Positions 18,459 to 60,884 of a stretch of DNA of 64,000 nucleotides are shown one piece after another. The notes under the pieces are model-generated. The model saw only the letters and a list, made by a program, of their open reading frames with translations, searched no databases and was not told the origin of the DNA. Within the stretch, counting starts at the first letter, position 1. Each line of letters begins with the position of its first letter. The stretch covers positions 87,200 through 151,199 of IMG/VR virus record IMGVR_UViG_3300018916_000001; one strand, 5' to 3'. Both the position numbers and the translations under genes were made by a program. This DNA is from a virus.

Positions 18459-19040
18459 TCAATCATTCTTTTCTTCTAACTCTCTTAGCTCTTTTTGTCT
18501 ATATCTAGGTAATTCATCATTATCGAAATTAACTTCATCACTGTAAAGACCCTCCAAGTGTTCCCATAAGTCAATAATTATTCTATCTTTCTCATTTTCT
18601 CTATATAAAAGCTTCCTAAATCTAGGAAACTCTTTCTTATACATTTTATAGAGCTTAAGATTATTATCAATGCTAAACTCTGTATTTACAATTCTATCGG
18701 CTAATTTAATAGTCAAAGCTGCATAATTCTCTCTAGTTTTTGGAGCTGTCTTCTCAAGTATTTCTTCTCTATTTTTACCTGGTTCATTGGTTAAATCAAA
18801 TACCATATCTGCTACTTCACTACCAAATACTGATTTAAGAAGCTCGTAAGTAACAGGAGTATCTTCTAATGAATCATGTAACCAAGCACCAGAAAGTACA
18901 ATACCATCTTTTATACCAAACTCCTGTAAAGTTAGAACTACCTCTTCTAGATGTTTTGTATAAGGTAACTCCCCATAAAACTGATTTTTATGTACCAATC
19001 TAGCAAATAACTCTGCTTGTTCACTTAATAGCATTTTCAT
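18459..19040 (-). CDS. Small alarmone hydrolase (RelA/SpoT HD domain, Mesh1-like)
   Basis: H.NQ...PY..HL.EV, WLHDSLEDT, FGSEVADMV..LT, IKLADRI.N. Confidence 0.85.
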   Translation of the reverse strand: MKMLLSEQAELFARLVHKNQFYGELPYTKHLEEVVLTLQEFGIKDGIVLSGAWLHDSLEDTPVTYELLKSVFGSEVADMVFDLTNEPGKNREEILEKTAPKTRENYAALTIKLADRIVNTEFSIDNNLKLYKMYKKEFPRFRKLLYRENEKDRIIIDLWEHLEGLYSDEVNFDNDELPRYRQKELRELEEKND

Positions 19041-19323
19041 TTAATTTCTCTATATCTAATAACTTTGTGTTCAAGTAATCTAAACTGCACTTAGTTTGCT
19101 TTATTTGTCTTTCTAAATATTCCTTCTCTCTTATAAGAAAAACATCTACCTCTTTCTTCATCTTATCTATTAGCTGTTCTACTGTATCAGCGTAATGTCT
19201 ATAAATATAGTAGTAAATATCTGAATTATAAATCTTACTATATAACGTACCTATTAACTTTTGGTTTTTCTTACTTTGACAAATAGTTATATAAAAGCCT
19301 TTATAGTTAATTTGAGTTCGCAT
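19021..19323 (-). CDS. HicB-like domain protein
   Basis: NYKGFYITI..LIG..ADTVEQLIDKMKKEVDVFL. Confidence 0.6.
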   Translation of the reverse strand: MRTQINYKGFYITICQSKKNQKLIGTLYSKIYNSDIYYYIYRHYADTVEQLIDKMKKEVDVFLIREKEYLERQIKQTKCSLDYLNTKLLDIEKLNENAIK

Positions 19324-19325
19324 AG

Positions 19326-19697
19326 TTAACCTCCTACATTTTCCCTATTCATCCAATTAAGACAGTTAATAATTATATCTCCATGACACTTCTCATCTTC
19401 CTTACACCAACAGACTAATTTCAATGGTTCATGACCTAATTCCTCTCTAAATCTAATATCAGCTAATAACCAATCAAGAGTTTGTTTAGCTTCAGTATTA
19501 GCTTGAATTTGATTCCATAACCAACGTCTATATTTCTGTACTACCTCTTCTCTTGTACTGTCTTTACCAATCTTATACGGATTAGCTAATGTAGATTGAG
19601 GTAAACCAATATACTTACTGCCACGACCTATATAAAAACAATCTTTGTCAAACTCTATATCTTTTATGCAAACTCTTTTGACATTTAGCTTATTCAT
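19326..19697 (-). CDS. DUF4326 family protein
   Basis: YIGRGS..LANPY.IG..REEVV.KYR.WL..LVCWCK..CHGDII. Confidence 0.8.
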   Translation of the reverse strand: MNKLNVKRVCIKDIEFDKDCFYIGRGSKYIGLPQSTLANPYKIGKDSTREEVVQKYRRWLWNQIQANTEAKQTLDWLLADIRFREELGHEPLKLVCWCKEDEKCHGDIIINCLNWMNRENVGG

Positions 19698-19910
19698 TAG
19701 TTATCTCTACTACTCTAGAATAATTTTGTGCTATCTCTAGTAGAAGTTCTGAGTTTTCTAACAACCAAATAGCTGCTTTTCTATTTTTATCTAAAAAACT
19801 ATAATCTGTTTCTATAGGTAATTGAGGATTATCCCACCAATCAGGATTACGTCTAGCTACATAAGGAAACTCTCTAAGTAATACTTTTATTTCGTCTTTA
19901 TTTATTTTCA

Positions 19911-20495
19911 TTAGATAATCCCTAAACTTCTTAAGTCTTCTATATCACATCTCATAGCTAACTTAGAAAATAATCTATGACCAATATGAACTTTCCCTAA
20001 CTTACTCATTACTTGGTTCCATTTATAGAAATCCTGACCTAAATAGAACATTACTACTGGAAATGGTGAAGAATCTTTATTGCTCGTATTCTCAAATTTA
20101 ACCCTTTTATCTAACTCACAAAAGGGATAAGGATAAAGTAACTTATACTTCTGAGTAGATACATCAGACTTAATCAATATAACTGCTTTTTCTACTTTAC
20201 CCTTTTCATAAGACTCGATTAATTTAGGAATTGCTAATTTAGATAGTGAGAAAGGCGGATTTAACCATACTCTTCCATACCAATCTTTAGTTAATCCATC
20301 ATCTTCTTTAGTGTAGATATTACTAGCTTTTATTGTTTTATTAGCTATTAGATTAGTCATTGGGTCTAAATCAATCCCACCCATAACTTCTCTAGCAGCT
20401 TCAATTAAATAGCTAGGAGTATTATGTTCGTCGGAGTTCTTAGACGTGAGAGTCTTTAATGTTTTCTTAGAGCTAGTAGAATCAATAATAATCAT
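19911..20495 (-). CDS. Phage DNA N6-adenine methyltransferase
   Basis: DEHNTP, IDLDP, DGL..DWYGRVWLNPPF. Confidence 0.85.
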   Translation of the reverse strand: MIIIDSTSSKKTLKTLTSKNSDEHNTPSYLIEAAREVMGGIDLDPMTNLIANKTIKASNIYTKEDDGLTKDWYGRVWLNPPFSLSKLAIPKLIESYEKGKVEKAVILIKSDVSTQKYKLLYPYPFCELDKRVKFENTSNKDSSPFPVVMFYLGQDFYKWNQVMSKLGKVHIGHRLFSKLAMRCDIEDLRSLGII

Positions 20496-20502
20496 AAAGT
20501 TA

Positions 20503-20934
20503 CTAATTCCTCTCTACTACTCTATTATCTATTTCAGTGTATATCTTAGGTGGAGGTAACAATTCCGGTACATAACCTATAACTCTTAAATCAACATTAT
20601 ATTTTTTAGCATTATCGATTGTATGTTTTGTACCTTTACTCGTCCCATTCCAGAAACAAATACAGTGAGTAGCATATTTCAACATTTCAATATTTCTTAC
20701 CATTCCAGCGCTTTTACCTTTTTCCCAATCAGGTATAAATTTCTTTACTTTATAATCTCTACTTTTAGCATAAGCTTCTCCTAACCTATCTGCACCTCTA
20801 GCACCACCAGATACAATTTCTACTTCACATTCTTCTTTTAAAATTTCTTCTAGATATCTATCAACTTCTCTATCTAATAGTTCTGGATTATTAAAATCTC
20901 TAGAACCTGCAATAATCAATTTTATGTCTACCAT
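20503..20934 (-). CDS. SLOG/YspA-like (DUF2493) protein
   Basis: IIAGSRDF, IVSGGARGADRLGE.YA, AGMVRN, FWNGTSKGT. Confidence 0.8.
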   Translation of the reverse strand: MVDIKLIIAGSRDFNNPELLDREVDRYLEEILKEECEVEIVSGGARGADRLGEAYAKSRDYKVKKFIPDWEKGKSAGMVRNIEMLKYATHCICFWNGTSKGTKHTIDNAKKYNVDLRVIGYVPELLPPPKIYTEIDNRVVERN

Positions 20935-21380
20935 TGTTTACCACTTTTATTGTAATTAACTAATTGATAATGAATATTCACTTGTTCTAATAGTTTATCA
21001 ATGTACTTCTCAAAAGAAGCTCTAACTCTTTCTATATTCTGTCCTTTAAAAGTAGGAGCTGCCATATTAGTACCAGGTAAACTACCTATTAATTTTCCAG
21101 AACTATCTTTACTAACTCTTAATTTAAAGTCTTTATAGGTAAGAATTATACTATTGCTTTTCTCTAACTCTTTCTGTTTCTCATAGTATTCCTTTAAGCC
21201 TTCATCTACTTTCTTTTCAAACACTTCTCTTAATTCTTTTACGGTTACTCCAGATACATCGTAATAAACACCACTAGCTACAGGAAAATATTTATTCTTT
21301 CTAATTCTTCCTATTAAATAATCATCAGAATGAACATAAACATCTAAAATAAAACCTAGATACTCTAATGTATTACTCAT
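20928..21380 (-). CDS. Tandem HicB-like domain protein
   Basis: LEYLGF..LIGRI..SGVTVKELREVFEKKVD and LTYKDF..LIGSL..FKGQNIERVRASFEKYID. Confidence 0.7.
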   Translation of the reverse strand: MSNTLEYLGFILDVYVHSDDYLIGRIRKNKYFPVASGVYYDVSGVTVKELREVFEKKVDEGLKEYYEKQKELEKSNSIILTYKDFKLRVSKDSSGKLIGSLPGTNMAAPTFKGQNIERVRASFEKYIDKLLEQVNIHYQLVNYNKSGKQW

Positions 21381-21399
21381 TTTTCTTTTCCTATAGAAG

Positions 21400-21424
21400 A
21401 AAAAGGGAGCTATTAAAACTCCCT
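21400..21424 (-). terminator. Intrinsic terminator
   Basis: RC AGGGAG-TTTTAATAG-CTCCCT-TTTT just after the stop of 21435-22295. Confidence 0.65.
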
Positions 21425-21434
21425 CATAAACTAC

Positions 21435-22295
21435 TTATTTACTATAATATCTATCGAAATAATCTTTCTTTACGTCTAATCTACTTAAATAGAGTAAATC
21501 TCCAAATAACTGATAAATATCTTCTAACTTTTCACTTAATGTACTAGCACTAAAATTAAGACTCACATCTTTCTCATATAATATATCTAAATGTTTTTGA
21601 TATTGTTGCAATTCTGGTTCATGTATTTCTTCTTGCTTCACTTTCTCTACTACATTTTCAATATCTTCTATTCCTTCTGGAGATTCTATATTAATCAATC
21701 TTAATTTACTAGAATGACTACTATCATGTATAAATATAGGAGATAAATCTATATCTACATAACTAGCATTTTTATATTGATTGCTGTTAGTAATAAGTCT
21801 TAGATAACAAGTAATACCATTACTATGCTTAATAATATATAAGAGAACTTTCTTCGGTGTATTATTAGATACATTAAGGTAGTTTAGAAAAGATCTAAAA
21901 TATTCATCTTTAATTAGCGCATATCTATACTCAAAAGAATTATCAACATACTCACTATATTCGGAAGACCTATAGTAGAGGTTAAATTTAATTTGAGTTG
22001 GATCATCATCTCTAAAATCTCTAAACACTAGATTCTTGAATGCAAGAGTAATAATTTCACTTGTTGGATAAGATTTTTTATCTTCCATAGTATTTTCTTC
22101 TTTCTTAAGCTCAATGTTCATGATATATCCTAACTTACTAAAGATTTCGATTAGTGTTTCTACAGTCGGTACATTTTTGCCAGACTCAATTTTAGAAAGA
22201 TAAGGTTGTTCAATGCCAATAATCTTAGAGAACTGAACTTGAGTTAAACCTAAATCTTTCCTTATCTTAGTGATTTCTTTTGCAATGTTGAACAT
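21435..22295 (-). CDS. XRE-family HTH protein fused to an unknown domain
   Basis: IRKDLGLTQVQFSKIIGIEQPYLSKIESGKNVPTVETL. Confidence 0.8.
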   Translation of the reverse strand: MFNIAKEITKIRKDLGLTQVQFSKIIGIEQPYLSKIESGKNVPTVETLIEIFSKLGYIMNIELKKEENTMEDKKSYPTSEIITLAFKNLVFRDFRDDDPTQIKFNLYYRSSEYSEYVDNSFEYRYALIKDEYFRSFLNYLNVSNNTPKKVLLYIIKHSNGITCYLRLITNSNQYKNASYVDIDLSPIFIHDSSHSSKLRLINIESPEGIEDIENVVEKVKQEEIHEPELQQYQKHLDILYEKDVSLNFSASTLSEKLEDIYQLFGDLLYLSRLDVKKDYFDRYYSK

Positions 22296-22350
22296 AAAAT
22301 TAAAGACTCCCTAATATTAGTAGAGAGTCATAGCTTTTACATCTTAGATA

Positions 22351-22503
22351 TTACTTAGTCTTATCATTAAAACCAAAAATATCCTCGTAGTTTTTAGCAG
22401 CTTTCTTAAGCGATTCATTAGGTTCGGGTGAGTTTTCTATAATTTCCCATAGTTGTTCTGCATCTTCTCTACTCAACCTAATAGACTTACTAGACTTTTC
22501 CAT
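22351..22503 (-). CDS. DUF1778 (TacA-type antitoxin) C-terminal fragment, 50 aa (not in ORF track)
   Basis: MEKSSKSIRLSREDAEQLWEIIENSPEPNESLKKAAKNY matches the DUF1778 tail (I.LS..D.......LENPPEPN..L..AA..Y). Confidence 0.7.
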   Translation of the reverse strand: MEKSSKSIRLSREDAEQLWEIIENSPEPNESLKKAAKNYEDIFGFNDKTK

Positions 22504-22606
22504 TTTTGGAGTTCGAGCAATTAGATTAAACTTGAGAGCTGTACGAGCTAACTATTGTCTAAATCCCATAATAAGTATCTCCTGTAAACGTTATATTTTA
22601 CTTCTA

Positions 22607-23071
22607 CTAATTACTATTTCTAAGATATGTACAATACGTTAACTCCTCTCTAGTTTGTTGCCTACTTAATATCCACTTACTATAATCAATATTCAAGTAA
22701 CAATCTCCAATAAAAGATCTATGTATATGAGTAATCACCATCATATTCGCCAAAGGTAAAAATAATTCATATATAGTTTTACCACCTATAACCCAAAAAT
22801 CCCTATTAGTTTTTATTATTTCTTCTACACTTTTAGAAATTTTAACTTGAGTATAGTCTAGACTGTTCAATTTAGAACTTAAAACTATATTAGTTCTTCC
22901 TTTTAAAGGTTCTGAATTTAAATCATGTAAAAAGGTAGTAGCTCCCATGACTACTGTAGAATTAACGGTTAGTTCCTTAAATCTTTTTAAATCTTCGGAA
23001 TAATACCAAGGTAACTTGTTTTTATTACCTATTACATTGTTGAGGCTAATAGCACTAATTAGCTTTATCAT
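22607..23071 (-). CDS. folA: Dihydrofolate reductase
   Basis: VIGNKNKLPW..EDLKRFKELT..VVMG..T..PLKGRTNIVLS..VIGG..IY. Confidence 0.9.
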   Translation of the reverse strand: MIKLISAISLNNVIGNKNKLPWYYSEDLKRFKELTVNSTVVMGATTFLHDLNSEPLKGRTNIVLSSKLNSLDYTQVKISKSVEEIIKTNRDFWVIGGKTIYELFLPLANMMVITHIHRSFIGDCYLNIDYSKWILSRQQTREELTYCTYLRNSN

Positions 23072-23993
23072 AACCCCCTACAACGGTCAACGGAATGATA
23101 ATTGCGTCATTTGGTTTATAATTACTTATTTCAAAATCTTCAAATACAAAATCAGTTAAATAGTTTTGCCCTTTATCTTTCATATTTAGCTGTGGAAAAG
23201 GACTAGGAGTACGCTCTAATTGTTTTTGCAGTGGTTCAATCTGGTCGGAATATATGTGAACATCATCTAACATAACAATCAACTCTCCTGGTTCATAGTT
23301 ACAACATTTAGAATACAGATGAGTTAATAATCCGTACTGAGCAATATTAAACCCTAGTCCCGTACCTATATCTGAACTCCTAAATTTAACACTTAGACTT
23401 AATCTACTATTAGATACATTTACTGTGTAAGTGAAACCACAAGCAGGTAGTAATACACTCTCCCTACCACATTCATCTGCCATTGAGTATACTTCTTCTG
23501 GATTCCAATAACTAACCACATAACTTTTTCTGTCTGGGTTTTTCTTAATACTATCAATTACCCATTTAGTTTGGTCTAAATAACCAGAATCAAATCTCCA
23601 TTTAGTGCTATTACTGTAATGGGTTGGAATAGTGAACACTTTACGTTTTAGTAAAATTTCTTCTACAAACTCTTCTAAAGAGATATTAGAATCAATATAA
23701 TTTTGTTGGTAGTATTTATATGCAAATTCATTCCAAATGTTTACTCTTTGCTGAGCTAGTTCTGCTACATTATTAGTTCCAGATAAAAACCATAGTATTT
23801 CTTTAAATGCGCCTTTCCAGAATAGTTTCTTAGTTGTAAGAATAGGAATACTATGGTTAGCCAGATTAAATCTAAGTAGCCTTCCAAATACAGAAAGAAT
23901 ATATTTGTCTTCTACTCCATAAATAGCTTTTTTAGTACCATTAATCAAAACATCTCTAATTAAATCTAAATACTGCTGTTCTTCTAAATTCAT
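23055..23993 (-). CDS. thyA: Thymidylate synthase ThyA
   Basis: EQQYLDL, PILTTKK, EILWFLSG, LPAC, RSSD..G..FNIAQY, DVHIY; overlaps DHFR. Confidence 0.85.
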   Translation of the reverse strand: MNLEEQQYLDLIRDVLINGTKKAIYGVEDKYILSVFGRLLRFNLANHSIPILTTKKLFWKGAFKEILWFLSGTNNVAELAQQRVNIWNEFAYKYYQQNYIDSNISLEEFVEEILLKRKVFTIPTHYSNSTKWRFDSGYLDQTKWVIDSIKKNPDRKSYVVSYWNPEEVYSMADECGRESVLLPACGFTYTVNVSNSRLSLSVKFRSSDIGTGLGFNIAQYGLLTHLYSKCCNYEPGELIVMLDDVHIYSDQIEPLQKQLERTPSPFPQLNMKDKGQNYLTDFVFEDFEISNYKPNDAIIIPLTVVGGYDKAN

Positions 23994-24000
23994 AATATTA

Positions 24001-24699
24001 TTAATTTGATTGGTTTAATAAATAATGTTGAAAATCTAAGTCATTAGATAAATAATTTTCTGTACCGTAAAATCTATCCCAATGTTCTTCATAAAAGTTA
24101 AACATATTAGTGAGTAATTTACTATTCAACTCTTCGAGGTCTAGAGTAATTAGTTCTTGTAAAAGTTGTCCATAAATTTGCTGTGTTTCTTCCACCTTCT
24201 CTGTTAAAATTTCTAGCTCCAATAAATAACCATAACCAGCATTTAGGTCGATAGTTGCAGTAACATCATCTTTAATAAATGTTTCTCTTTGTCTGCCCCA
24301 TTTACTACTATAAGTTAAACCTGCATTTAACAATAAATTGTCTAAAGTAATAAAGGATATATCTAATAGAACTTCATACTCCTTACGAATAGTTCCATTA
24401 CTACTATTCTCGTCAAATATTGAGTATTTAATAATAAAAAAACTTTCTCTATTATCTATACATCTAGTTCTAATACTAAACTTGTCACCTCTACCTATTA
24501 CGTTACTTAACTCTAATTCTTGATCTGTTGTTAAATAATCTCTTAAAATATCAAATAAATAAGCAAGAGAATAATCACTATAATTAAAATAATGATTTAA
24601 CTGAGTTTCTCTACTTATATAAATATAACCTTTCTCTAATAGCTTAGACTTAGTTATATTGTAATCTGGTATTAAAGCCTTAACTTCTACTTCAAACAT
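24001..24699 (-). CDS. CYTH (triphosphate tunnel metalloenzyme) domain protein
   Basis: N-terminal EVEVK, IRTR, RKEYE, R.RETF, LLELE. Confidence 0.8.
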   Translation of the reverse strand: MFEVEVKALIPDYNITKSKLLEKGYIYISRETQLNHYFNYSDYSLAYLFDILRDYLTTDQELELSNVIGRGDKFSIRTRCIDNRESFFIIKYSIFDENSSNGTIRKEYEVLLDISFITLDNLLLNAGLTYSSKWGRQRETFIKDDVTATIDLNAGYGYLLELEILTEKVEETQQIYGQLLQELITLDLEELNSKLLTNMFNFYEEHWDRFYGTENYLSNDLDFQHYLLNQSN

Positions 24700-24721
24700 T
24701 TTTCTTTCTCTCTAAAATAAT

Positions 24722-24746
24722 AAAAGGGCAGCTATTACACTACCCT
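24722..24746 (-). terminator. Intrinsic terminator
   Basis: RC AGGGTAG-TGTAATAG-CTGCCCT-TTT after 24766. Confidence 0.6.
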
Positions 24747-24765
24747 ATAACTAAACGACTATTGA

Positions 24766-25228: not shown

Positions 25229-27403
25229 TTACTTACTTACTACTTTAAAAATTCTAGTGCTTCCATTACTCTCTACTTTAGCATAGAAAGTTGGATTACT
25301 AGAAAGTGAAAAACCCAATCCACTTAGCTGTTCTTGTCCATCATCTTCTACCTCTAATTTATGAGTTAACATCTCAAAGACTCTTTTATGGTTCCTATAC
25401 AAATCATCTTTTAGAAATTCATTAAAGAATCCATTAGCTTTAGGGCTTCTACATTTATCTAAGATAAAGAATAAATGCTTATTACCAATCTCTACACTAT
25501 CCCAATAATTAGGAGAATAAAGAATCATGTTCACTTTCTGAAACTTATTAGTATCAATCTCCCATATTTTAGTAGATTGTACTTGAGAAGTCTTAGGTTC
25601 TGTGGGAAATACTACTCCATCTTTCTTAGTATAAGTAAACTTAGTGACAATTACACTTTTTCTACTAGAAATAATCTCTTGAGAGTCAAATGTATATACT
25701 TCTCCATTAAATTCTAGTTCTACTGTGTAATTCCTAGTAACAGCACGATTTGTATAATTATGTACTGTAACAACGTATGTACCTTCTAAAAGATTAGAAT
25801 CATGAGAGTAAATAATATTCTCTACAGGTTGTTCAGTTGTAGGAAATACGTTTTGATCTACGTCTAAATGACCTTTAGTTTTATAAGAGCGCTTATTTCC
25901 ATAATAAATCTCATTGCCGTCAGGTTCAATCACATGAAGGTCGAGGTCTGTATAATTGTCCCAAGCTAGTGAGATTCTTAACTTACCATCTATCTTCCCA
26001 CCTGCTTTCTTAACCTTCTCTTTAATTGAATCTGCTACTCCATTGTTATAACTCCAAGAGAAATGATTATCCCATTTAAATAAAGAAGGAGCTTCAGAGT
26101 TAACAGCAGTAACAAGACTTACTAAGTTATTCTCCTTACTCTTCTCAAATAAGATAGAGATTGAATCAGCTTTAGGTATTTCATCATTCAAAAACTTATC
26201 TAAAGTAATCTCTTGTACATTCTTCAAGCTCTTAGGACTAACTGGAATTTCTTCTTTTAACTTATTGAAGAGAACTTTAGTTTTGTTTTCAGAATTAGCA
26301 GTAGTTCTAGAATCTCCACGATTGAGATATATTGTATTATTGACCTTAACATCAGTATAATTAGCAAACCTACGAGCTAAAGAGTCTTCATAGCCCAACT
26401 CGATGACAGTTTGAAGTGCATCATCCACCATTCTTTGAGTAGGAGCCACCTTAACACGTTTATAGTTATTAGGGTCTACTACCGAACCATACTTATTAAC
26501 TGCTGTCTCAATATCAGTGTCATTACTTAAATCGATTAGTAACGTGCCAATAGCAGAGTTTCTAATTCTTGCTCCTAACTTCTGACAATTAACCCAAGCA
26601 AAATTATCTTTTTTCTGCTCCAAAACTACACTAATACTATTTTCAGCTATCAATCTTCTATACTCATCTTGAAGTTTCTGAAATGATTTAACAACAGCAA
26701 TAAACTCACTACCACGATAGAGATTTCCTTCTTTCTCCAAATCAATTACCGATTGAACTGCATAAGGAGTAATTTCATCCAAAGCTCTTTTAAAGACATT
26801 CTTAGTATCTCTATAAGAAGCTTGAGTAGGAGTAATATCTTTCTCAGCATTTACCTTCTGATATTCTTCTCTATTCAAATGATAGTAAAAATGATCCCAG
26901 CGAATTACACCAGTAGACAATACATCAACTTCTGGAGTTTCAAAATTAAAATCAGTTCCTAGCTTAGGTTGATTGTTGACAAATACATCTCGAATATTAG
27001 AGCGAAATACTAATTCACTCAAATTATCTACTACTTTCTGGTACATCTCATCTGGAACTTCAAAATTCCAAAGAGTAGTTAACGACATATTTTCTTGATT
27101 GACTTTGACTAATCCACCATAAGATTTAATAAATTGACGGCAAGAATTACAGTTAAAGCTTTGACGTAAATCTTCAGGAAAAGAATTGAGATAAGTATCC
27201 CACAGCTCATCTTTACTTACATCACTAATAAAAATAACTCCTTTATCTACAGAAGACATTAATTTAGCAACATGAGCTTGGAATATAGACTTAAATTGAT
27301 TGAACAACATAAATAATTCCTCAGTGTGAATAAAGATAATATCAAAGGAGCAGTAATACCCACTCCTTATCTTAAAATCAATGTCTTTTAGCAGAAGCTT
27401 CAA
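25229..27403 (-). CDS. Large phage protein with a YfaP/DUF2135-like domain (true start probably the second Met)
   Basis: NCNSCRQF; LRISLAW..DLDLHVIEPDG.EIYY..LDVD..PVENI. Confidence 0.65.
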   Translation of the reverse strand: MKLLLKDIDFKIRSGYYCSFDIIFIHTEELFMLFNQFKSIFQAHVAKLMSSVDKGVIFISDVSKDELWDTYLNSFPEDLRQSFNCNSCRQFIKSYGGLVKVNQENMSLTTLWNFEVPDEMYQKVVDNLSELVFRSNIRDVFVNNQPKLGTDFNFETPEVDVLSTGVIRWDHFYYHLNREEYQKVNAEKDITPTQASYRDTKNVFKRALDEITPYAVQSVIDLEKEGNLYRGSEFIAVVKSFQKLQDEYRRLIAENSISVVLEQKKDNFAWVNCQKLGARIRNSAIGTLLIDLSNDTDIETAVNKYGSVVDPNNYKRVKVAPTQRMVDDALQTVIELGYEDSLARRFANYTDVKVNNTIYLNRGDSRTTANSENKTKVLFNKLKEEIPVSPKSLKNVQEITLDKFLNDEIPKADSISILFEKSKENNLVSLVTAVNSEAPSLFKWDNHFSWSYNNGVADSIKEKVKKAGGKIDGKLRISLAWDNYTDLDLHVIEPDGNEIYYGNKRSYKTKGHLDVDQNVFPTTEQPVENIIYSHDSNLLEGTYVVTVHNYTNRAVTRNYTVELEFNGEVYTFDSQEIISSRKSVIVTKFTYTKKDGVVFPTEPKTSQVQSTKIWEIDTNKFQKVNMILYSPNYWDSVEIGNKHLFFILDKCRSPKANGFFNEFLKDDLYRNHKRVFEMLTHKLEVEDDGQEQLSGLGFSLSSNPTFYAKVESNGSTRIFKVVSK

Positions 27404-27788
27404 GTTCTAGTCTCATTAGTCCAGACTTTTCTGATGCTTCTTTCTCTAACTTTTTAATTGTTTCTATCATATCTTCCACTAAAGAATGATAACTACAAAT
27501 TGTCCCTTCTGGAGAATCATAACCTTCTGCATTTAAAATCTCTCCGAACTCTTTTTGATATTCCTCTGCTTTACTGCTCATTCTCTCTATCCTTTGTCAG
27601 TCTCTTTTCTTCACTATAGGCAACAAAAGCAATTCCACCTAATACACTACTCCCTAAAATTAAAGGAGATGGATTTCCACCTGTTAATAGTAAAACTCCT
27701 GCGAAACCCAACCCTACTTGAGCCATCTGTTTAACTAATGACGACAGACTAGACTTAGACTCTTCATATAAGCTTTTTCTTCTCATAT

Positions 27789-40234: not shown

Positions 40235-40492
40235 TTATTCTTTATTATTCCTTTTATCCAATTTCAAAATCTTATCTACACTTCTTTTCATTCTTCCTTT
40301 TAGATATTCAATTTCACACAATTCAATTTCTAACTTAGCTGACTCAAATAGTTCTTTAGGATTAGAACCTCCGACTATAATTTCTATGTCATTACATTCA
40401 GAGCCAAAGATATCAGCTAACCATAAGTGAGGAAAACTAGGTGTTCTTATACAATTTCTATCTATAATTACTTCATAGTTTTTATATAGCAT
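40235..40492 (-). CDS. HicB-like domain protein
   Basis: MLYKNYEVII..WLADI..VGGSNPKELFESAKLEIE. Confidence 0.55.
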   Translation of the reverse strand: MLYKNYEVIIDRNCIRTPSFPHLWLADIFGSECNDIEIIVGGSNPKELFESAKLEIELCEIEYLKGRMKRSVDKILKLDKRNNKE

Positions 40493-41187: not shown

Positions 41188-43358
41188 TTTTTCTCATTCC
41201 AATTAGTAAAAGTTAAATGATTTGGATCAAAATCTACGTCTACCGGAATACTTTTAATCCAATAGCCTAGTTCTTGATGTAAAATCCTCATTACACAACT
41301 ATTAATTTCATAGCTATATTTTCTTAATCCAATCCAGTTAAGCTCATCATGGCAGTTGTTACAAAAACGAGCTTTCCAATGAGGATTCTTATAAAACTCA
41401 ATTAATATTCGACCTTGAGCGAACTTTAATATATCTGCTTCACCACAAAGCCAGATGAGAGAAATAGATTCTGTATAAGGAATCTCAAACTTAGTTCCCC
41501 AATCACTTATCTTTTCTTGTTTCTTTAAATGGACAGTACGATTAGTAAAAGTCTTACATTTACCATAAACTCCTTCAGTAGGTTGTCCATAGAGATTGTA
41601 AAAAGGGAATTGTATATTATAAGAGTTTGATTCTTTTATATAGTTTTGAATAAATTGATCTAATCTTTTATAAGTTTCTTTATATGCCTTCTTAATTAAT
41701 TTAGCTTGGTCAAGTGTAATATCTACTCCCCAACCTTTAAATGTCTGCTGTAACTTATAAGCTCCGGCTTGATTGAGTCCTGAATAATTAGCTATCTTCC
41801 CCCATTTTCTATAAGAATCTACTTGACTATCTTTCTCTTCTTTATATAATCTTTGAAACTCATCAAAAGAAACGCTACTACCATTAAGCTTGATTATTGT
41901 ATGCGCCATAATTAAATGGGCATCTTTATCATTTAAATAAATATCTAGTAGAACTGGGTCTTGAGAAAGTTCAGTACAAATTCTATAGTGAGACGCAGAT
42001 AAATCAATAATCCCTAAAAAATAATCATCGGGAGCAGCAAAGAAAGTTCTAAACGCTGGTAAACCTTCCTCTTTAAACCAACTAGGAGTTTTAGCTGGAT
42101 TTTGAAGTTGAGTACCAATATCTACTTTCTTTCTACTACCTTTACTATTTTTAAAACTTAAAGTACCAGTACAACTACTTCTTCCACTACCCGACGCTGA
42201 GATTTGATTATAAATTGTTCGTACTGAATAAAAATCCTCATTCTTATTCTTCCAAGATGTATTATTAATTCCCTCCATATAGTTGATAAGAACATTTAAC
42301 GTTCTCATTCTAAGTAGAGCTTCAGCTTCAGGATATTGAACTGATTTTAAAGCTTCATCATTCATTGATCCTAAATTAAGTTCTGGCCATTTAGTGTTAA
42401 AAGCTTGTCTTAATAACTCTACTTGTCCCCAATTTATACCTGGAAAGCTGTCAGTAATTATTTTGTTATATTCTTCAAATTTAGTTTTGCATAAAGCTAT
42501 ATTTGTCTCTAATAAACTCTTATCTATAGGAAATCCATAAACTTCCATTTGAATAAAAGCAGATAACGCTAAACATTCTGCCATTACGGAGTAGTATAAG
42601 TTCTCTCTTACTACTAACTCTTGAATATATGGATAAAGTTGAAGAGGTAGTATTGAGTCATTACCTGAATAATTATATTTTGAATTAGTTATCCTCCATC
42701 CCCAATCTTCTTTCTGTTCTGTCTTATCTACAGTGAAAATAGTAGAGAATAATATATTGACTCTTTCGGTAATAGCTTTAAGTGAATGTCCCAACAAACA
42801 TCTATCACTTCTAGCTTTAACTCTAGAACTTCCAGATATCGTCTTTTCTTTTGTACTAATAACTTCAATACCTGCCCACAACACTTGAGAGCAAAGCATT
42901 AAATCTCTACAATTAAGTAGTTGAATATCAAAGTGATAAAGTAAGAATCCTCCATCAAACTTTAAATTCTGTCCTACTACTGGAACGTCTATGTCTTCAC
43001 ATTTAATCTTGAGTAATCTGTAAAATCTAGAACTAAGAAACTCTTCTCTCTTCTTCTCTATATCGTCTAAGTTACCTCCTAAATCATATACAAGAGCGTA
43101 ATATTCAAACTCATTCTCTCTTACTTCTACTTTAATAGATACAGATATTAAACGTATTAAACCAAATCTAAAATATAATGCAGAATATTCCTCTTCTCCA
43201 TGAGTTTCAAGGTCTAATCCGAATATAGTAGAAGATTCAAATAAGTCTAAATATTTATCCCATTCTTTCGGAGCTACTTTATTTTCTACTATAATATTTT
43301 CTTCTAGAGGAACATCTACTTCTAAGATATCTCTCCATGTAAGTTGTCTAGTTTTCAT
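41184..43358 (-). CDS. Family A DNA polymerase with 3'-5' exonuclease
   Basis: ExoI LDLET, ExoII QNLKFD, ExoIII YSGND; SGRSS..LQN; motif A DLSASHYR, motif B RKWGKIANY, motif C HDEL. Confidence 0.9.
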   Translation of the reverse strand: MKTRQLTWRDILEVDVPLEENIIVENKVAPKEWDKYLDLFESSTIFGLDLETHGEEEYSALYFRFGLIRLISVSIKVEVRENEFEYYALVYDLGGNLDDIEKKREEFLSSRFYRLLKIKCEDIDVPVVGQNLKFDGGFLLYHFDIQLLNCRDLMLCSQVLWAGIEVISTKEKTISGSSRVKARSDRCLLGHSLKAITERVNILFSTIFTVDKTEQKEDWGWRITNSKYNYSGNDSILPLQLYPYIQELVVRENLYYSVMAECLALSAFIQMEVYGFPIDKSLLETNIALCKTKFEEYNKIITDSFPGINWGQVELLRQAFNTKWPELNLGSMNDEALKSVQYPEAEALLRMRTLNVLINYMEGINNTSWKNKNEDFYSVRTIYNQISASGSGRSSCTGTLSFKNSKGSRKKVDIGTQLQNPAKTPSWFKEEGLPAFRTFFAAPDDYFLGIIDLSASHYRICTELSQDPVLLDIYLNDKDAHLIMAHTIIKLNGSSVSFDEFQRLYKEEKDSQVDSYRKWGKIANYSGLNQAGAYKLQQTFKGWGVDITLDQAKLIKKAYKETYKRLDQFIQNYIKESNSYNIQFPFYNLYGQPTEGVYGKCKTFTNRTVHLKKQEKISDWGTKFEIPYTESISLIWLCGEADILKFAQGRILIEFYKNPHWKARFCNNCHDELNWIGLRKYSYEINSCVMRILHQELGYWIKSIPVDVDFDPNHLTFTNWNEKK

Positions 43359-43635
43359 TATTACTAGCTAAATAACTATCTACCGTTCTCCAAAAATCTC
43401 TAGCATATTGATAAGGTGACTCTCCTATTACAAATAGATCTAAATCTTCTTCATTCAAATAGATATATCCTGAATAAGGAGCATTATAACCATCATATAT
43501 TTTTTCGATTTTACAAGTAAACCCTTTATAATATAAATCTTGATTATGAAAGTTCTTTTGCCATTCTTCTCTTTCTTGCCAAGTCAAACTTATTAAATAT
43601 TCAAAAACATCTGTAGATTCTAAGTTCTTATTCAT
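43348..43635 (-). CDS. HicB-like domain protein
   Basis: YYKGFTCKIE..YSGYI..VIGESP....DFWRTVDSYL. Confidence 0.6.
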   Translation of the reverse strand: MNKNLESTDVFEYLISLTWQEREEWQKNFHNQDLYYKGFTCKIEKIYDGYNAPYSGYIYLNEEDLDLFVIGESPYQYARDFWRTVDSYLASNNEN

Positions 43636-44726: not shown

Positions 44727-45131
44727 TCATAAAATCTCCTCACTTTTATTTTGTAGCTCATTCCAAAAACGTGCAGACTCTTCCAATCCATTTATGTACT
44801 CTACAAACTGACGAACAATATCATCTGATGAATCCCCGCTAAATACCCATCCTCGACTAAAAGGTAAATATCCATACCAATCATTACTACCACCTTCTTT
44901 ACTAAGTTCTAGAGTCGCATTCTTATAATAAAAAACTTCTCTCTTTTGTTCTAAAAATTCATCGATATACTCCTCAAAATCATTAGCTAAATCAGTGAAA
45001 CTATCACTACCGATTTCTAATTCTAGGTCTTTGAAGTTCTCATTAGGTACTACTTTACCTAATATTACTAAGCAATCAGTATCTAAACTAACTTGTAATT
45101 GAAATCCTCTATAACTAATAATGTTTTCCAT
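44727..45131 (-). CDS. Tandem HicB-like domain protein
   Basis: ISYRGF..VSLDTD..VILGKV..SDSFTDLANDFEEYIDEFL and YYKNA..WYGYL..FSGDSSDDIVRQFVEYIN. Confidence 0.7.
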   Translation of the reverse strand: MENIISYRGFQLQVSLDTDCLVILGKVVPNENFKDLELEIGSDSFTDLANDFEEYIDEFLEQKREVFYYKNATLELSKEGGSNDWYGYLPFSRGWVFSGDSSDDIVRQFVEYINGLEESARFWNELQNKSEEIL

Positions 45132-56150: not shown

Positions 56151-56401
56151 TTCTTAGCTCCTAATCTTTCTAGTAATACCAAACTTTTCTTCCCGAACTT
56201 AGGGTTGTTGATATAAGCATTAGTAAAATCCGCTTTGTTAAACTTCCTCTTCAATCTCTTCTCACAACAACCAATACAAATCATCCCAAATTTACTAGGA
56301 TGTATCTTCTTCCAAATCTTGTCTTTAAGAAAAAAATGCTCGTATTGTGTGTTCTGATTACAATACAAGCAGTTCCATTTACTTTTCTTACGAGTAGACA
56401 T
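56147..56401 (-). CDS. Small Zn-binding phage protein
   Basis: CLYC..W..CIGCCEKRL.R....DF. Confidence 0.55.
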   Translation of the reverse strand: MSTRKKSKWNCLYCNQNTQYEHFFLKDKIWKKIHPSKFGMICIGCCEKRLKRKFNKADFTNAYINNPKFGKKSLVLLERLGAKK

Positions 56402-56404
56402 GAC

Positions 56405-56887
56405 TTATACTTCTAGTAGATTATCATTTAAAAAAAGGTGTAACTTAGCTTCTTCTGCTAACCATTGAGAAAAAGGAATACCAAGAGATTCACTCATAGG
56501 ATCTTCTCCTTCAGTATATTGGCACACTATAGGATCTGTATTATCAGGTGATAGTAAAGAGAAACACCAAAAAGTATAACCTTGGTGCATAAGAAAAGTG
56601 AAACAATACCACTCATGTCTTTCATCTTCTGGATAAGCTTCCTCTATTAGCTCCCAACTCCAATCTTGGATATCAATTATTTTGGGATATAAAAAATCAG
56701 AACCTCGAAGAAATCCTCCTGAATCTTTACCCATCCACAAAAGAAACTCTTTATAAGACTCGGGTAGAAAGACATTTAACTTTTTTTCTAGCTCTTGTAT
56801 CTCTTCCTCTGTACAACCTATAGTATTTAAGTCTTTTAAGAGATTCTTAGTCGTTTGTAAGTAAGTCATTCTAATCACCAAGGACAA
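56405..56887 (-). CDS. SMI1/KNR4 (SUKH) immunity-family protein
   Basis: GCTEEEIQELEKKLNVFLPESYKEFL..G; FLMHQGY; DP.V; FSQWL. Confidence 0.85.
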   Translation of the reverse strand: MSLVIRMTYLQTTKNLLKDLNTIGCTEEEIQELEKKLNVFLPESYKEFLLWMGKDSGGFLRGSDFLYPKIIDIQDWSWELIEEAYPEDERHEWYCFTFLMHQGYTFWCFSLLSPDNTDPIVCQYTEGEDPMSESLGIPFSQWLAEEAKLHLFLNDNLLEV

Positions 56888-57026
56888 TTAGGTTTATCAC
56901 AAATAGAACCATCACAATATTCACTTTCACATTCCGAACAATATAGGAAAGGAGTTTTAGGTTCTGTTTCTACTTTTTCTACTTTTCCATCTTCATCTGT
57001 AGCTTCATATTCTAATTTTTCTTCAT

Positions 57027-57500
57027 TCATAGATAAATCTCCACATCATAAGGTTTATCAGCAAAATTACGGACTAAAATCTCTACTACATCTTTTTTAT
57101 CTAAGTTCCCACATCCACAACCTAACATTGGAATAGCTAGTAGTGGAGTAGGATACCAATCTTCATTATATTTTTCTTCTAATATCTCAACTAATTTCTT
57201 TACTCCTTTTTCTATCCACTCCAATTTACTATCTTGTGCTACTACCTCCTTAGTACAGAAATTAATAATATCTCTACTACCTTTAATTGCTTCTTCTGGT
57301 TTAGCTATATAGAAAATCAAATCGCCACCTTTAGGAGTAGAGACTTTACAATACTCATGATAATACTTAAAGTTAATTGGAAATCTATTCTTAAAGTCTA
57401 GAGCAAGTCCTTTACCTGAAATTCCTTTAGTATTTACAGGATTGACTAAATATTGAGCAGTAGAATCAAATATGTCACAGTTGTTCTTGTAGATAATCAT
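57027..57500 (-). CDS. Macro domain protein (DarG-like ADP-ribosyl hydrolase)
   Basis: DIFDS.AQYLVNPVNTKG.SGKGLA.DFK.RFP; IINF.TK; AIP.LGCG.GNL. Confidence 0.85.
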   Translation of the reverse strand: MIIYKNNCDIFDSTAQYLVNPVNTKGISGKGLALDFKNRFPINFKYYHEYCKVSTPKGGDLIFYIAKPEEAIKGSRDIINFCTKEVVAQDSKLEWIEKGVKKLVEILEEKYNEDWYPTPLLAIPMLGCGCGNLDKKDVVEILVRNFADKPYDVEIYL

Positions 57501-58018
57501 TTAAATCCTCTTTTAGTTTTTCAATACGTTTTGTAGTAGAAGCTAGCTTTCCATCTATACACCAGTCACAATGACATTTATAAATAAATCTAGTTACCTT
57601 ATTCTTGAAGAACTTATTAGATATTTCATAACTATCAGTAGACTTATAGAAAGTATTTTCTCTCCAATTTTTTCTATCTTTCTCTCTTCTCTTACCTGCT
57701 AGTAGTTTTCCATATACTATATTGGCTATCTTCTGTGGAATTACTTTCTTCATAATACTCCTCGAATAATATGGCTATATCAGAACTTCTAATCTTCTCA
57801 ATAGTTCTTATATACCAATCTTTCTTAGTCTTGCTTATAAACTTACTAGGATGGTTTTTGAATAATCTATTATTTAAGGCAACTGTCCCTGGCTTATACA
57901 ACATATCCAGAGACAAATTCTTTCCTGTCTCATTTCCATTAAGAGGTCGTTTTCTCTTGAGTTCTTTAATAGTAGAAGATATTTTATTGATTCGACTTTC
58001 TGGTATAGTCTTTCTCAT
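57475..58018 (-). CDS. Two tandem basic paralogs (57475-57753, 57692-58018)
   Basis: MxKxIP..I..I; YK; N(K/R)xFKN....FI shared. Confidence 0.5.
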
Positions 58019-58064
58019 GATAATCTCCTTAAATTGAGTATAGTTGATAACTGAAAAATACTAC

Positions 58065-58430
58065 CTAGTCTTCAAAATCCTCTATTGGCTCGTCAAAATT
58101 TTCTGATATTGAAATAACCTCTCTATCACTACCAAATAAAGGTTTTCTACGTTTTTTACTTTCTTCTATCTTTTGTCTCATTAAGTCATTCCATAAGTCA
58201 CGTTCTTCATCCGATTCAAAACAATCCATATCGTCGTCTCCCCATTCTCTAACTTCTATTTTTCTACGCCATTCTAAGTTTTTTTCTAGAGATTTGAATT
58301 CTTCTAATATTTTTTCCAGTAAGTCGTCATAACTTCTAAGTAAGGATAGTTGATAAAAATAATCAGAAGCTTCAGTTACCTCTCGTTTAAGATTTTCTCT
58401 TTTCTCTTGAAATTCTTGATATTTAGTCAT
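58065..58430 (-). CDS. Coiled-coil protein ending in a DUF2281/Phd-type antitoxin tail
   Basis: C-terminus KKRRKPLFGSDREVISISENFDEPIEDFED. Confidence 0.65.
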   Translation of the reverse strand: MTKYQEFQEKRENLKREVTEASDYFYQLSLLRSYDDLLEKILEEFKSLEKNLEWRRKIEVREWGDDDMDCFESDEERDLWNDLMRQKIEESKKRRKPLFGSDREVISISENFDEPIEDFED

Positions 58431-59275
58431 TGTTTTAGTGGTTGTAAGGGTATAACTGACTTACTAATAGAAGTAATATACCTCCGGTTAGTATTTGAAC
58501 TAAACTATCAATAGAATAGTCATGGATGATAGCGTTTATAGTTCTATCACCCATACCAAAGATTATCGAAGCTACAATTATCCAGAAACATCGAAGCTTA
58601 TCCATTTCCAGAATTCCTTCAATTCTTGATTATGGTTGAGATGTAAACTATTTCCTCTGATTTGTTGAGATTCCACAATTGCTACGTATTCAATTACGTT
58701 CCCTCTGACACTTACTTGATACTTCCGTTCTCTGTTACGCCAATCTAACACAATACATTCGTCTTCTCTGTCAAAACTGATATGTGGGTCTTGCCAATAC
58801 TTAAATCGAGTAGAAACAGCAAATAAAGCATTTACTAAGCTATCTACTGTTCTAAGTGTTGTTGTATCACATTGAGGAAATCGTTGGTCTAGGTTTAATT
58901 TTCTTAGTTTGGTCATGAACATGGTGTCTCCTTGGTTAATTGAATGTGTACTGAAAACTTAAATATCAAAACCTTCTAATAGTATGGATCTATAAGGAAT
59001 AGCATCTTTAATAAGTCCTATTAATTCCTTCCTTAATTGTTCAATAGATTCTTGACTTTCATGACTAATAGGAAGATATAAAATCCAATATTGTCTATCT
59101 AGTTCATAAGATATATCTATAGTTGTACCTTCTAATGTCCACACATAATTCCAGAGAACTATATTTAAATTACTAACTTCCTCTTTAGATAGTTTTGAAG
59201 CATCTAGTGTTACTGTACTACACACGTTGTAGTCTCTATCAAGTTCTAGAGTAAGTGGTTCTCTTGTTTGCTCAA

Positions 59276-59734
59276 TCATAGTTTTCTATCAACTAAGTAA
59301 AGTGCTATTGCATCTATAGTATCTAACTCTTTTTTAGGAATCTTAGATACATCTATACTCTTACTGACCCAAAATCTTACATCGTCCTTACTAGCATTTC
59401 CTTTACCAGTAAGCTTGAACTTCATAGACTTAGGTGAAATCGTTCTATAAGTAATAGAGTTTAAATAGCAAAGTTCTTCTGCTATTCCTACTACTTTAGA
59501 AAGATTAGATCCATTAAATCCAGCTAATACTGGTAACTCAATTAGACAATCGTTTATCTCATATTCAGTTACAAGATTAGATAAAAAAGTCCTAATAGAA
59601 TGCAATCTCTCCCCATTACATTCTTTAGGAGTAGTGATGAATGTTCCGTATTTAAGGAGAGTAGAGTTTTGAGATATAGCCCATCCTAATTTGGAAAGAC
59701 CAATATCCAAGTAGATCGTCGAGGTATTGACCAT
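59276..59734 (-). CDS. ruvC: RuvC-like Holliday junction resolvase
   Basis: LDIG...GWAI, ERL..I, LIE, P..MK..LTGKGNASKDDV, D.IDAIA. Confidence 0.85.
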   Translation of the reverse strand: MVNTSTIYLDIGLSKLGWAISQNSTLLKYGTFITTPKECNGERLHSIRTFLSNLVTEYEINDCLIELPVLAGFNGSNLSKVVGIAEELCYLNSITYRTISPKSMKFKLTGKGNASKDDVRFWVSKSIDVSKIPKKELDTIDAIALYLVDRKL

Positions 59735-59781
59735 GTTACAATTTTTTTTATTTCATCATAACATGATCAATTTCTAATCCT

Positions 59782-60366
59782 CTACACTTTCTTTAATACC
59801 TCTAGAGCTTCTTTTGCAGATGTTTTTAGCTGAGCTTCATCAATATCAAACTCAGGATCGAATAAATCAGAATCGCCACAATAAGCATCTACATTACCAA
59901 ACAACTTGTCTAAAATTTGGAACTCTCTTTCTGAGTCGAAACTCTTATCACTCTTAAATAATTGTAGAAATTGTTGTTCAAATTCACTTGTAGTAATACG
60001 ATCAGCAAGAAAGTCTTCTAGTAAATTAATATACTTAGTCATATCTGTTTTTCCTCTCTTTACTACTATTAAACCTTGAAAGATGCACTCTAATTTCTCA
60101 TTAATATAGTCAACCATATAATCTGGAATGACCATTTGATTCCTTCCAGTATGAATGTTCTCTTCCCTGAAATCAATACCTCTTAGCTTATAGTTCTCCT
60201 CACAGATTTTAATGTACTCATTGATAATCCCAGTAAATTCAAGAAATGGATGACATTGAGTATTAGCAGCTAATCTGTAGAATGTATTACTAGCTTCTTT
60301 CATTAGCTCAATAGATTGTTCAGGAGTTAAAGTTAGATTAATTGAGTTCTCTTTTTTATTTAGCAT
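59782..60366 (-). CDS. Fusion: phage hypothetical domain + colicin D immunity-like domain
   Basis: C-terminal KYINLLEDFL..I...EFEQQFLQLFK....ILDKLF..VDAY..D....IDEAQL..A..L; internal ATG at 60042 with GAGGA upstream. Confidence 0.7.
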   Translation of the reverse strand: MLNKKENSINLTLTPEQSIELMKEASNTFYRLAANTQCHPFLEFTGIINEYIKICEENYKLRGIDFREENIHTGRNQMVIPDYMVDYINEKLECIFQGLIVVKRGKTDMTKYINLLEDFLADRITTSEFEQQFLQLFKSDKSFDSEREFQILDKLFGNVDAYCGDSDLFDPEFDIDEAQLKTSAKEALEVLKKV

Positions 60367-60368
60367 TA

Positions 60369-60884
60369 TTATTCTCCTCTACTTTTATTACCAAAATAAG
60401 CGACTTCTTCATCATAATTATGAAAACGTGGCTCACTAATACCTTCAGAAAGTATCTTATATCTGATTCCCTTAACCTCTGACACAGTAATAACACCTTT
60501 AGAATAAGGAAGAATTACTATATCTCCTACTTCTAATTCATCTATTCTTTTTGTTTTCTGCTCTTTCTTTTTAGAAAGTTCTAGTAAATTCTCACAAAGA
60601 GTAAGTAAATCATAGACTTGGTCAGTACCAAAAAACACTGCGGGTTCCTTCTCTAGTAGAGTTTTTAAGCGATTTAACTCTTTCTCTGGGTCTGATGTGG
60701 GAACTTTATTGCTCATAATTTCGTCTACAAACTTCTGAAAATCTTCTAGTGTTTCATCCCAAGTAATTAATTCACCTCTAGAAAAGCTTAACTCCTCACA
60801 TTCAGCTTTGACTAAAACCCCTCCTCTTTCTTCTGGAATTAAGACAAAACTTCTATATTCAACGGGTCGAAGATTATTTACCAT
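60369..60884 (-). CDS. HicB-like N-domain + SH3-like C-domain protein
   Basis: VEYRSFVL..AECEEL..TWDETLEDFQKFVDE; ELEVGDIV. Confidence 0.5.
   Translation of the reverse strand: MVNNLRPVEYRSFVLIPEERGGVLVKAECEELSFSRGELITWDETLEDFQKFVDEIMSNKVPTSDPEKELNRLKTLLEKEPAVFFGTDQVYDLLTLCENLLELSKKKEQKTKRIDELEVGDIVILPYSKGVITVSEVKGIRYKILSEGISEPRFHNYDEEVAYFGNKSRGE

Follow-up and report, generated by a model that had tools for sequence, protein, structure and literature searches.

Why would a phage carry a large family of antitoxin-like domains, in places several to a protein, with no toxin gene beside them? The question is raised by a 64,000-nucleotide stretch of DNA (the window), bases 87200-151199 of IMG/VR record IMGVR_UViG_3300018916_000001, which is the right part of a whole phage genome of 151,199 bp with direct terminal repeats at its ends. 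An earlier note, made from the sequence of the window alone, had described 13 open reading frames (ORFs) between positions 19021 and 60884 sharing a recurring unit of about 50 residues, 18 copies in all with five tandem doubles, and had likened the unit to the N-terminal, HicA-binding domain of HicB antitoxins. The analysis described below supports this kinship, and the units are most likely stoichiometric inhibitors of host toxin RNases or of other host proteins. Coordinates are window positions unless marked genome, and unit genes are named by their first coordinate.

All 13 ORFs were present on the minus strand, and the 18 proposed units could be aligned in register along the pattern Y.GY.L...G.C/V...L...F..VD, in which one tyrosine was invariant. 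The recurrence of the unit was thus established as claimed. The conserved core was limited to residues Y7, L12, G25 and F46, and the surfaces were extremely diverged. Since a hidden Markov model (HMM) trained on the family's own members is circular, three independent tests of membership were used. In the first, leave-one-gene-out HMMs were scored against 3,820 shuffled ORFs as decoys, whose maxima were 8-12 bits. The second used an HMM built exclusively from 119 units of proteins on other contigs (external HMM; decoy maximum 10.6 bits). In the third, candidates were aligned with the family profile by hhalign, a comparison in which eight control ORFs gave <1% probability (E 0.07-0.33).

The leave-one-gene-out HMMs detected, at 15-36 bits, both units of 20928, 31198, 33785 and 44727, unit A of 29779 and the units of 31026, 31609 and 34739, and every one of these scored 29-62 bits with the external HMM. 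The five tandem doubles were all confirmed. They are 20928-21380 (150 aa, units at residues 1-63 and 78-133, leave-one-out scores 18.2 and 21.6 bits), 29779-30258 (159 aa, residues 10-61 and 88-145 with a coiled-coil linker between them, external scores 40.9 and 46.0 bits, the latter for unit B), 31198-31530 (110 aa, residues 1-56 and 60-110, leave-one-out 29.3 and 32.9 bits), 33785-34336 (183 aa, residues 1-58 and 58-112, leave-one-out 26.1 and 18.5 bits, with a 70-aa tail without Pfam matches) and 44727-45131 (134 aa, residues 1-62 and 66-118 followed by a C-terminal helix, leave-one-out 36.3 and 15.3 bits). Among the single-unit genes, 31026-31187 encodes 53 aa (leave-one-out 28.8, external 50.8 bits) and 31609-31776 encodes 55 aa (leave-one-out 26.6 bits; one external unit is 84% identical). 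The 98-aa product of 34739-35035 contains its unit at residues 24-75. The TTG start listed for this gene gives a 20-residue leader and a 41-nt overlap with the neighbouring gene; orthologs (e.g. P0020) begin some 10 residues further on, so that translation may in fact start downstream of the TTG. Two further genes were recognized by the external HMM and by hhalign: 19021-19323 (100 aa, unit at residues 1-62 plus a helical tail; 24.0 bits, 92.9% probability) and 43348-43635 (95 aa, unit at residues 34-90; 20.7 bits, 93.3% probability, and 14.7 bits with the HMM of robust units).

The remaining three genes gave poorer scores. The cysteine-rich, 71-aa product of 34494-34709 is probably a degenerate unit: it matched the HMM partially (10.4 bits), gave 13% probability in hhalign (E 2e-3), was 49% identical to the N-terminus of 33785 over 41 aa, and fell into one BLAST cluster (E<1e-4) with 33785 and with the genes at genome 37577 and 38603 described below. 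Gene 60369-60884 (171 aa) has a probable unit at residues 9-60, marginal by HMM (6.8-9.8 bits) and at 59% in hhalign (E 9e-5), and a 110-aa C-terminal part without a known family. Membership of 40235-40492 (85 aa) is doubtful, the HMM scores of 3.0-6.7 bits (external 6.3) being at or below decoy level; aligned together with its ortholog from a related contig (L009), it reached 43% and E 2.5e-4 with large gaps. A further candidate, ORF 27378-27581, was rejected, as its 12.5 bits with the first, circular HMM shrank to just 2.8 bits with the robust HMM. HMMs built from the units, a check suggested in the earlier note, therefore recovered the robust units above decoys in both leave-one-out and external-only form, and by these sequence comparisons the window holds ten robust genes with 15 units, including the five doubles, two probable genes (34494 and 60369) and a doubtful one (40235).

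As a count of the family, on the other hand, the first reading was too low, because the family extends beyond the window. Unit profiles located five further genes with 11-12 units in the left part of the genome: genome 14037-15092 (351 aa, five units), genome 15156-15548 (one unit), genome 34114-34524 (one unit), genome 37577-38599 (340 aa, four units) and genome 38603-39217 (one unit). Of the roughly 255 ORFs of the genome, 15 thus encode well-supported units, 27 altogether, and with the less certain members the totals rise to at most 18 genes and 30 units; the family takes up ~6.9 kb (4.6%) of the genome and ~6-7% of the ORFs. In an all-against-all BLAST, other paralog families of the genome had three members at most. 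The 5-unit and the neighbouring 1-unit protein have in common a C-terminal extension of ~75 aa (genome 14040-14261 and 15159-15386; L011:1041-1262 and 2160-2387, minus strand), which was without a Pfam match and was modelled as a small beta-beta-alpha-beta domain preceded by a long helix. The extension also occurs in P0068, and P0073 has the shared unit with a different tail. Directly downstream of the 4-unit gene lies a gene for a MazG-like pyrophosphohydrolase (genome 37051-37539; L012:4052-4540, minus strand; Pfam E 1.1e-5).

Are the units related to HicB? A profile of 13 robust units (A1) was run against a library of 1.84 billion (1.84e9) representative proteins and matched just 85 of them at E<=1e-3. 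The top matches were phage-like proteins, each of one to six units, and the lower end of the list was made up of ordinary bacterial antitoxins carrying Pfam HicB PF05534, a ribbon-helix-helix (RHH) domain, C-terminally; here the N-terminal 55-60 residues matched the unit (E 5e-5 to 1e-3), and the gene for one of these proteins immediately followed a HicA_toxin gene. Conversely, an HMM made only from 14 genuine HicB N-domains, a set that had itself been picked from the A1 matches, scored ten phage units at 12-32 bits, with a shuffled decoy maximum of 6.2. The copy closest to the genuine HicB N-domains was 34739 (31.9 bits); 31026 reached 20.7 bits and the two units of 20928 reached 20.6 and 28.4 bits. 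The product of 20928 also matched PHROG 9151, 'HicB-like antitoxin' (E 2.9e-5), the only library match among the 13 proteins. When the units were aligned with the genuine HicB N-domains by hhalign, a probability of 98.5% was obtained (E 1.8e-15). Feature searches of the ESM Atlas gave values of 0.76-0.84, which serve as leads only. By contrast, the curated HicB models of Pfam (PF15919/PF05534) gave no match at E<=1 on any of the 13 proteins and those of NCBIfam likewise stayed below threshold, so that the comparison with HicB profiles proposed in the earlier note succeeded with genuine N-domains and failed with the curated families. In the genuine HicB proteins tested, PF05534 spans the RHH part and not the N-domain. 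A profile search of the PDB sequences returned nothing meaningful (best E 0.19). Taken together, these sequence comparisons support the view that the units are homologs of the N-terminal toxin-binding domain of HicB.

The rest of a toxin-antitoxin module was not found. Pfam gave no RHH or helix-turn-helix (HTH) match on the unit proteins or their extensions, and in AlphaFold2 (AF2) models only helical tails were seen, in agreement with the earlier note. Nothing informative came from Pfam on seven C-terminal extensions or on three terminal segments, N or C, of external homologs. When all six frames of the entire 151-kb genome were searched for hicA (PF07927), nothing was obtained at E<=1, whereas the search returned a signal for 12 of 14 control genomes. 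Lacking both an RHH/HTH domain and hicA, the genes are not toxin-antitoxin modules but encode the toxin-binding half only.

The predicted structures were consistent with this assignment. The double 44727 was modelled by AF2 as two beta-beta-beta-beta-alpha units with a predicted local distance difference test score (pLDDT) of 93, and the 351-aa protein as five consecutive units of the same kind followed by the long helix and the small C-terminal domain (pLDDT 88); one of these five units had only 8.7 bits by HMM. The beta-beta-beta-alpha fold foreseen in the earlier note was therefore present as a HicB-like core, to which the models add a strand at the N-terminus. A shape search of the ESM Atlas with the 44727 model gave HicB clusters in three of the five rows shown, with template modelling (TM) scores of 0.60, 0.74 and 0.48 by row. 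In an exhaustive structural search with the same model, six solved HicB-type chains were found at Z 4.3-5.2, values that are weak alone and too low to prove kinship, with identities of 14-24% that were the highest in the list. In these N-domains, from TTHA1013 (1wv8), 2yzt, TTHA0281 (2dsy), B. pseudomallei HicB (6g1c, 6g1n) and SWOL_0700 (3k6q), the core superposes on the unit over 48-57 residues with a root-mean-square deviation (rmsd) of 1.6-3.2 Å. Since the solved HicBs align from residue 8 on (8-64), the unit can be described as the HicB beta-beta-beta-alpha core preceded by an extra N-terminal 'YKGY' strand. The solved domains are beta-beta-beta-alpha-beta, whereas the phage unit has no strand after the helix, that strand being replaced by the one ahead of the core. 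The N-domain likeness claimed at the outset is thus borne out by several lines of comparison.

Foldseek found no match at E<=1e-3 in the PDB or in BFVD. Its top PDB rows for the double were repeats I-II of Pur-alpha, with the same beta-beta-beta-beta-alpha order (E 9e-3), and in the exhaustive structural search dsRBDs (double-stranded RNA-binding domains) of Dicer, DCL1, TARBP2 and STAU1 appeared at Z 4.2-5.0. Arrays of 2-5 repeats are moreover typical of RNA-binding proteins. The units might on these grounds be nucleic-acid-binding modules of the PUR/Whirly or dsRBD type, acting on RNA or single-stranded DNA, for example by shielding phage transcripts or tRNAs. Pur-alpha was not accepted as the fold, however, as the TM scores of its rows were 0.22-0.26 and the rmsd 16-19 Å. 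The dsRBDs differ in the order of their elements, the phage unit having no N-terminal helix, and the sequence homology is to HicB, not to PUR or dsRBD proteins. The units are also mostly acidic or neutral: the median isoelectric point (pI) was 5.0, with pI <6 in 19 of 30 units and >8 in only five of 30, net charge being only a proxy for the binding surface. The low predicted TM score (pTM) of the 5-unit model, 0.40, argues against a fixed PUR-like pairing and suggests, as far as a model can, beads on a string instead of a fixed array. With mostly acidic units and a poor PUR match, nucleic-acid binding appears improbable.

As the earlier note had stated, the copies are highly diverged: within the genome the median identity between units was 21% and the maximum 51%. 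Many units have closer counterparts on other phage contigs, up to 96% identical, and the 34739 subfamily occurs at 50-74% identity on nine other contigs. Divergence within the genome combined with closer orthologs elsewhere indicates that the expansion is old and that individual paralogs have been maintained. This bears on the suggestion that the units are functionless, either decaying duplicates or selfish filler ORFs, for which the degenerate look of 34494 and the uncertain assignment of 40235 could be cited. Orthologs kept at 50-96% identity on other contigs, the confident fold predictions and the ratio of nonsynonymous to synonymous substitution rates (dN/dS) of 0.09 between 44727 and its 84% identical L009 ortholog all speak against it, and absence of function is very improbable.

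The expansion is restricted in its distribution, and the earlier note was right to call it unusual. At least 12 units each were present in two other phage genomes or contigs (~146.5 kb). Besides the 85 library matches, no relative was detected by tblastn with 34739 and the 5-unit protein among GenBank phages (50,697 records), or when 185,579 species genomes were scanned with a pattern of the 34739 subfamily. Units were also lacking in four phage records, larger or partial, sharing a 724-aa marker protein (~40% identity). The short contigs with P0003, P0042, P0017 and P0063 yielded no useful context. Judged by sequence, the phage has no close cultured relative: megablast of 7 kb of the window gave no match among GenBank phages, and the GenBank phage relatives of its DNA polymerase are only 21-23% identical.

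Two close relatives, the contigs L001 and L009, are 77-92% identical to this genome in nucleotide sequence, and between them and the phage the set of unit genes varies. Gene 20928 is absent or replaced in L001, and the island formed by 33785, 34494 and 34739 is absent from L009; in one relative another unit gene takes the place of the island. A clean presence/absence difference from L009 was seen for 43348, which lies between a DUF8296 gene and the DNA polymerase gene. The L001 allele of 19021 is 38% identical inside flanks that are 92-97% identical in nucleotide sequence. Thus five of seven unit genes were absent or replaced, as compared to 13 among 54 other genes (gene-wise Fisher p 0.02, or 0.04 with the island counted as one event), an enrichment that rests on only seven unit genes.

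The same observations bear on a possible role of the units in the phage's own economy, as regulators or inhibitors of its nucleases (e.g. homing endonucleases) or as accessory factors in assembly or replication. Such a role would fit the location of the unit genes. GC content is ~30%, nearly all genes across the span are on the minus strand, and the region encodes DNA polymerase A, ribonucleotide reductase (RNR), thymidylate synthase, a primase/helicase-like protein, an exonuclease, a Thg1-like enzyme and an RNA ligase. It would also fit the three GIY-YIG paralogs of the genome and the CcdA/HicB-like antitoxins reported in association with homing endonucleases in 'moraphages' (PMC12619734). 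No unit gene in the window adjoins a homing endonuclease gene, however, the nearest being 37563-38180. Furthermore, close relatives with conserved core genes differ in their unit genes, and the marker-sharing phages do without units, from which it follows that the core life cycle does not depend on the family. Self-use is accordingly quite unlikely.

The homing endonuclease gene at 37563-38180 (GIY-YIG plus HTH) sits between two pieces of the RNR gene, which is apparently split into a 572-aa ORF (38309-40027) and a start-less open frame (36345-37442; region 36345-40042, minus strand). Both pieces align to one 1166-aa, intein-containing RNR gene in L009. A search of Rfam over 37300-38450 for an intron around the GIY-YIG gene gave no match. 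In L001, which is 88% identical here, the thymidylate synthase gene and its neighbours 22607-23071 and 24001-24699 (the latter weakly CYTH-like; region 22585-24714) are replaced by ~570 bp of unrelated sequence. An 89-aa ORF at 8119-8388 (minus strand) had a HigA-like label without Pfam support at E<=1e-3.

What lies beside the unit genes? The gene overlapping the start of 34739, 34995-35276 (minus strand), encodes an orphan 93-aa homolog of Im3, the colicin E3/cloacin immunity protein (Pfam Cloacin_immun E 9.6e-8, 32.7 bits, cut-off 25). In phmmer it matched Im3 (1e44_A) over nearly its full length (E 4.7e-4), and no nuclease toxin was found nearby. It was paired in the all-against-all BLAST (E<1e-4) with a 79-aa paralog, 35447-35686 (minus strand), and both genes are absent from L009. 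Directly downstream of 60369, gene 59782-60366 (194 aa, minus strand) carries a colicin D-type immunity domain in its C-terminal half (Pfam Colicin_immun PF09204 E 2.6e-17, 63.6 bits, cut-off 22). A similar arrangement was seen in phage G006, where a 152-aa protein with a near-canonical YKGY HicB N-domain at its C-terminal end is followed by a 164-aa Colicin_immun protein (L020:515-1009, plus strand) and then by a leucine-rich-repeat ORF; the relatives without units are also without a Colicin_immun gene. At 18459-21380 (minus strand) 19021 and 20928 are interleaved with genes for HD_4, DUF4326, Dam methyltransferase and YAcAr SLOG domains. The HD_4 domain, possibly of an alarmone hydrolase, was exactly at the Pfam cut-off, and YAcAr and HD_4 also occur near units in contig L010. 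In the same contig a 5-unit protein occupies the position that 29779 has here, next to the Thg1-like gene. By their sequence relationships, several of the neighbours are candidate toxin inhibitors or counter-defence genes.

Of the possible functions, the one we favour, tentatively and at a little below an even chance, is stoichiometric inhibition of host toxin RNases by the units, HicA-type enzymes being the likeliest targets, with paralogs tuned to different targets and concatemers acting as polyvalent inhibitors. Produced during infection, the unit proteins would bind host toxins stoichiometrically, covering and neutralizing them, above all HicA-type RNases released through decay of the labile antitoxins of the host. 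A different target would be expected for each diverged paralog, and the concatemers would be polyvalent antidotes. The units would act beside other toxin-less inhibitors, the colicin E3- and colicin D-type immunity homologs, and beside the RNA-repair enzymes (Thg1-like, RNA ligase), and related phages would reshuffle the repertoire through gene gain, loss and allele replacement. This mechanism is proposed because in HicAB helix alpha1 of the domain packs on HicA, which according to PMC10865869 it blocks irrespective of the DNA-binding domain, small forms of HicB being also known, and because free-standing antitoxins of phages have been proposed as counter-defence (PMC12619734, PMC11594946). 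It is in keeping with the homology to HicB, the absence of a DNA-binding part and of hicA, the purifying selection and the retention of individual orthologs, the mostly acidic units, the arms-race-like turnover between relatives, and the toxin inhibitors and counter-defence candidates, MazG among them, in the neighbourhood. Prediction of a complex between a metagenomic HicA (the partner of P0059) and the 34739 unit gave a score of 0.02, a 'no answer', and was counted neither way.

Several results weigh against inhibition of HicA-type toxins by a diversifying set of units. To the silence of the curated HicB models and the small number of genes behind the enrichment in variable regions, already described, must be added that the sole retained ortholog that could be measured, 44727, is under purifying and not diversifying selection. 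The 27-30 domains far exceed the hicA loci of a typical genome, and with them the plausible HicA targets, which makes retargeting to other host proteins a strong rival. Finally, in the structural search with the 44727 model the best neighbours were inhibitors of other kinds, MMOD, T7 Gp1.2 bound to dGTPase and two AcrIF entries (Z 5.5-6.7), which scored as high as or above HicB. The fold is small and common; fold alone is therefore indecisive, and the decision falls to the sequence evidence. These observations would suit a HicB-N fold that has come to serve as a small binding module of general use, with most paralogs inhibiting host proteins other than HicA (defence or metabolic enzymes) in the way that T7 Gp1.2 inhibits dGTPase and anti-CRISPRs inhibit Cas complexes. 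The diverged surfaces with their four conserved core residues would be expected of such a module, and the varied counter-defence candidates among the neighbours go beyond RNase inhibitors. On the other hand, the sequence relationship is specific to HicB N-domains, and the Gp1.2 and Acr matches are at fold level only (7-12% identity, Z <8) and may reflect a common arrangement. We consider the general-binder explanation doubtful, if serious. The fullest form of the toxin-inhibitor proposal, which we hold to be unlikely, is a combinatorial library of antitoxin decoys, in which each unit would act against a different host RNase toxin (HicA variants, perhaps others), concatemers of 2-5 units would be polyvalent, and units would be swapped by recombination to track hosts.

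Orphan HicB-like genes of phages are already known. The nearest known relatives of the units are the 'YKGY'-type HicB antitoxins (N-domain plus PF05534 RHH, with HicA mRNA interferase partners), which they resemble in N-domain sequence, predicted shape and the motif Y-K-G-Y ... G.V ... F..xVD.YL. The phage proteins differ from these in having no RHH/HTH domain, no hicA near or far, 27-30 copies and concatemers of up to five units, and many phage units have G.C.EL instead of G.V. T4 Dmd is a direct phage inhibitor of RnlA/LsoA that comes without a toxin; it is a single gene and unrelated to the host antitoxin, whereas the present family is a genuine antitoxin domain expanded to the share of ORFs given above. 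T7 Gp1.2 and the AcrIF proteins (7u65_G, 7dtr_A, 7elm_U; Z 5.5-5.8) are likewise small phage inhibitors with a similar arrangement of sheet and helix; they are encoded by single-copy genes and have no detectable sequence relationship with the units. The orphan antitoxins of large phages (PMC12619734, PMC11594946) follow the same proposed logic as Dmd, a phage-supplied antitoxin-like binder directed against activation of host toxin-antitoxin systems. The small HicBs of the compact class 1/2 hicAB modules (Gerdes 2024, PMC10865869) also have a small HicB fold, and one example is phage-borne; they are still paired with a cognate hicA, whereas the phage family is toxin-less and multiplied. No literature report was found of a family on the scale of 27-30 domains, of antitoxin-domain concatemers of 4-5 units (up to six in relatives), or of linkage to colicin-type immunity homologs.

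What would the family mean for the phage? Toxin-antitoxin modules are now viewed as common anti-phage defences, and to our knowledge few phage countermeasures to them have been described, all single genes. Among the counter-defence strategies described for toxin-antitoxin immunity, a library of antitoxin decoys, if it exists, would be new. Should the units prove to be inhibitors, they would provide a ready panel of natural binders, for which rescue of cells expressing a toxin offers a clear assay; they would make it possible to test whether HicAB truly defends against phages; and they would illustrate how a small fold diversifies and concatenates in the course of conflict. Should their targets be different ones, new anti-defence proteins could be drawn from the family.

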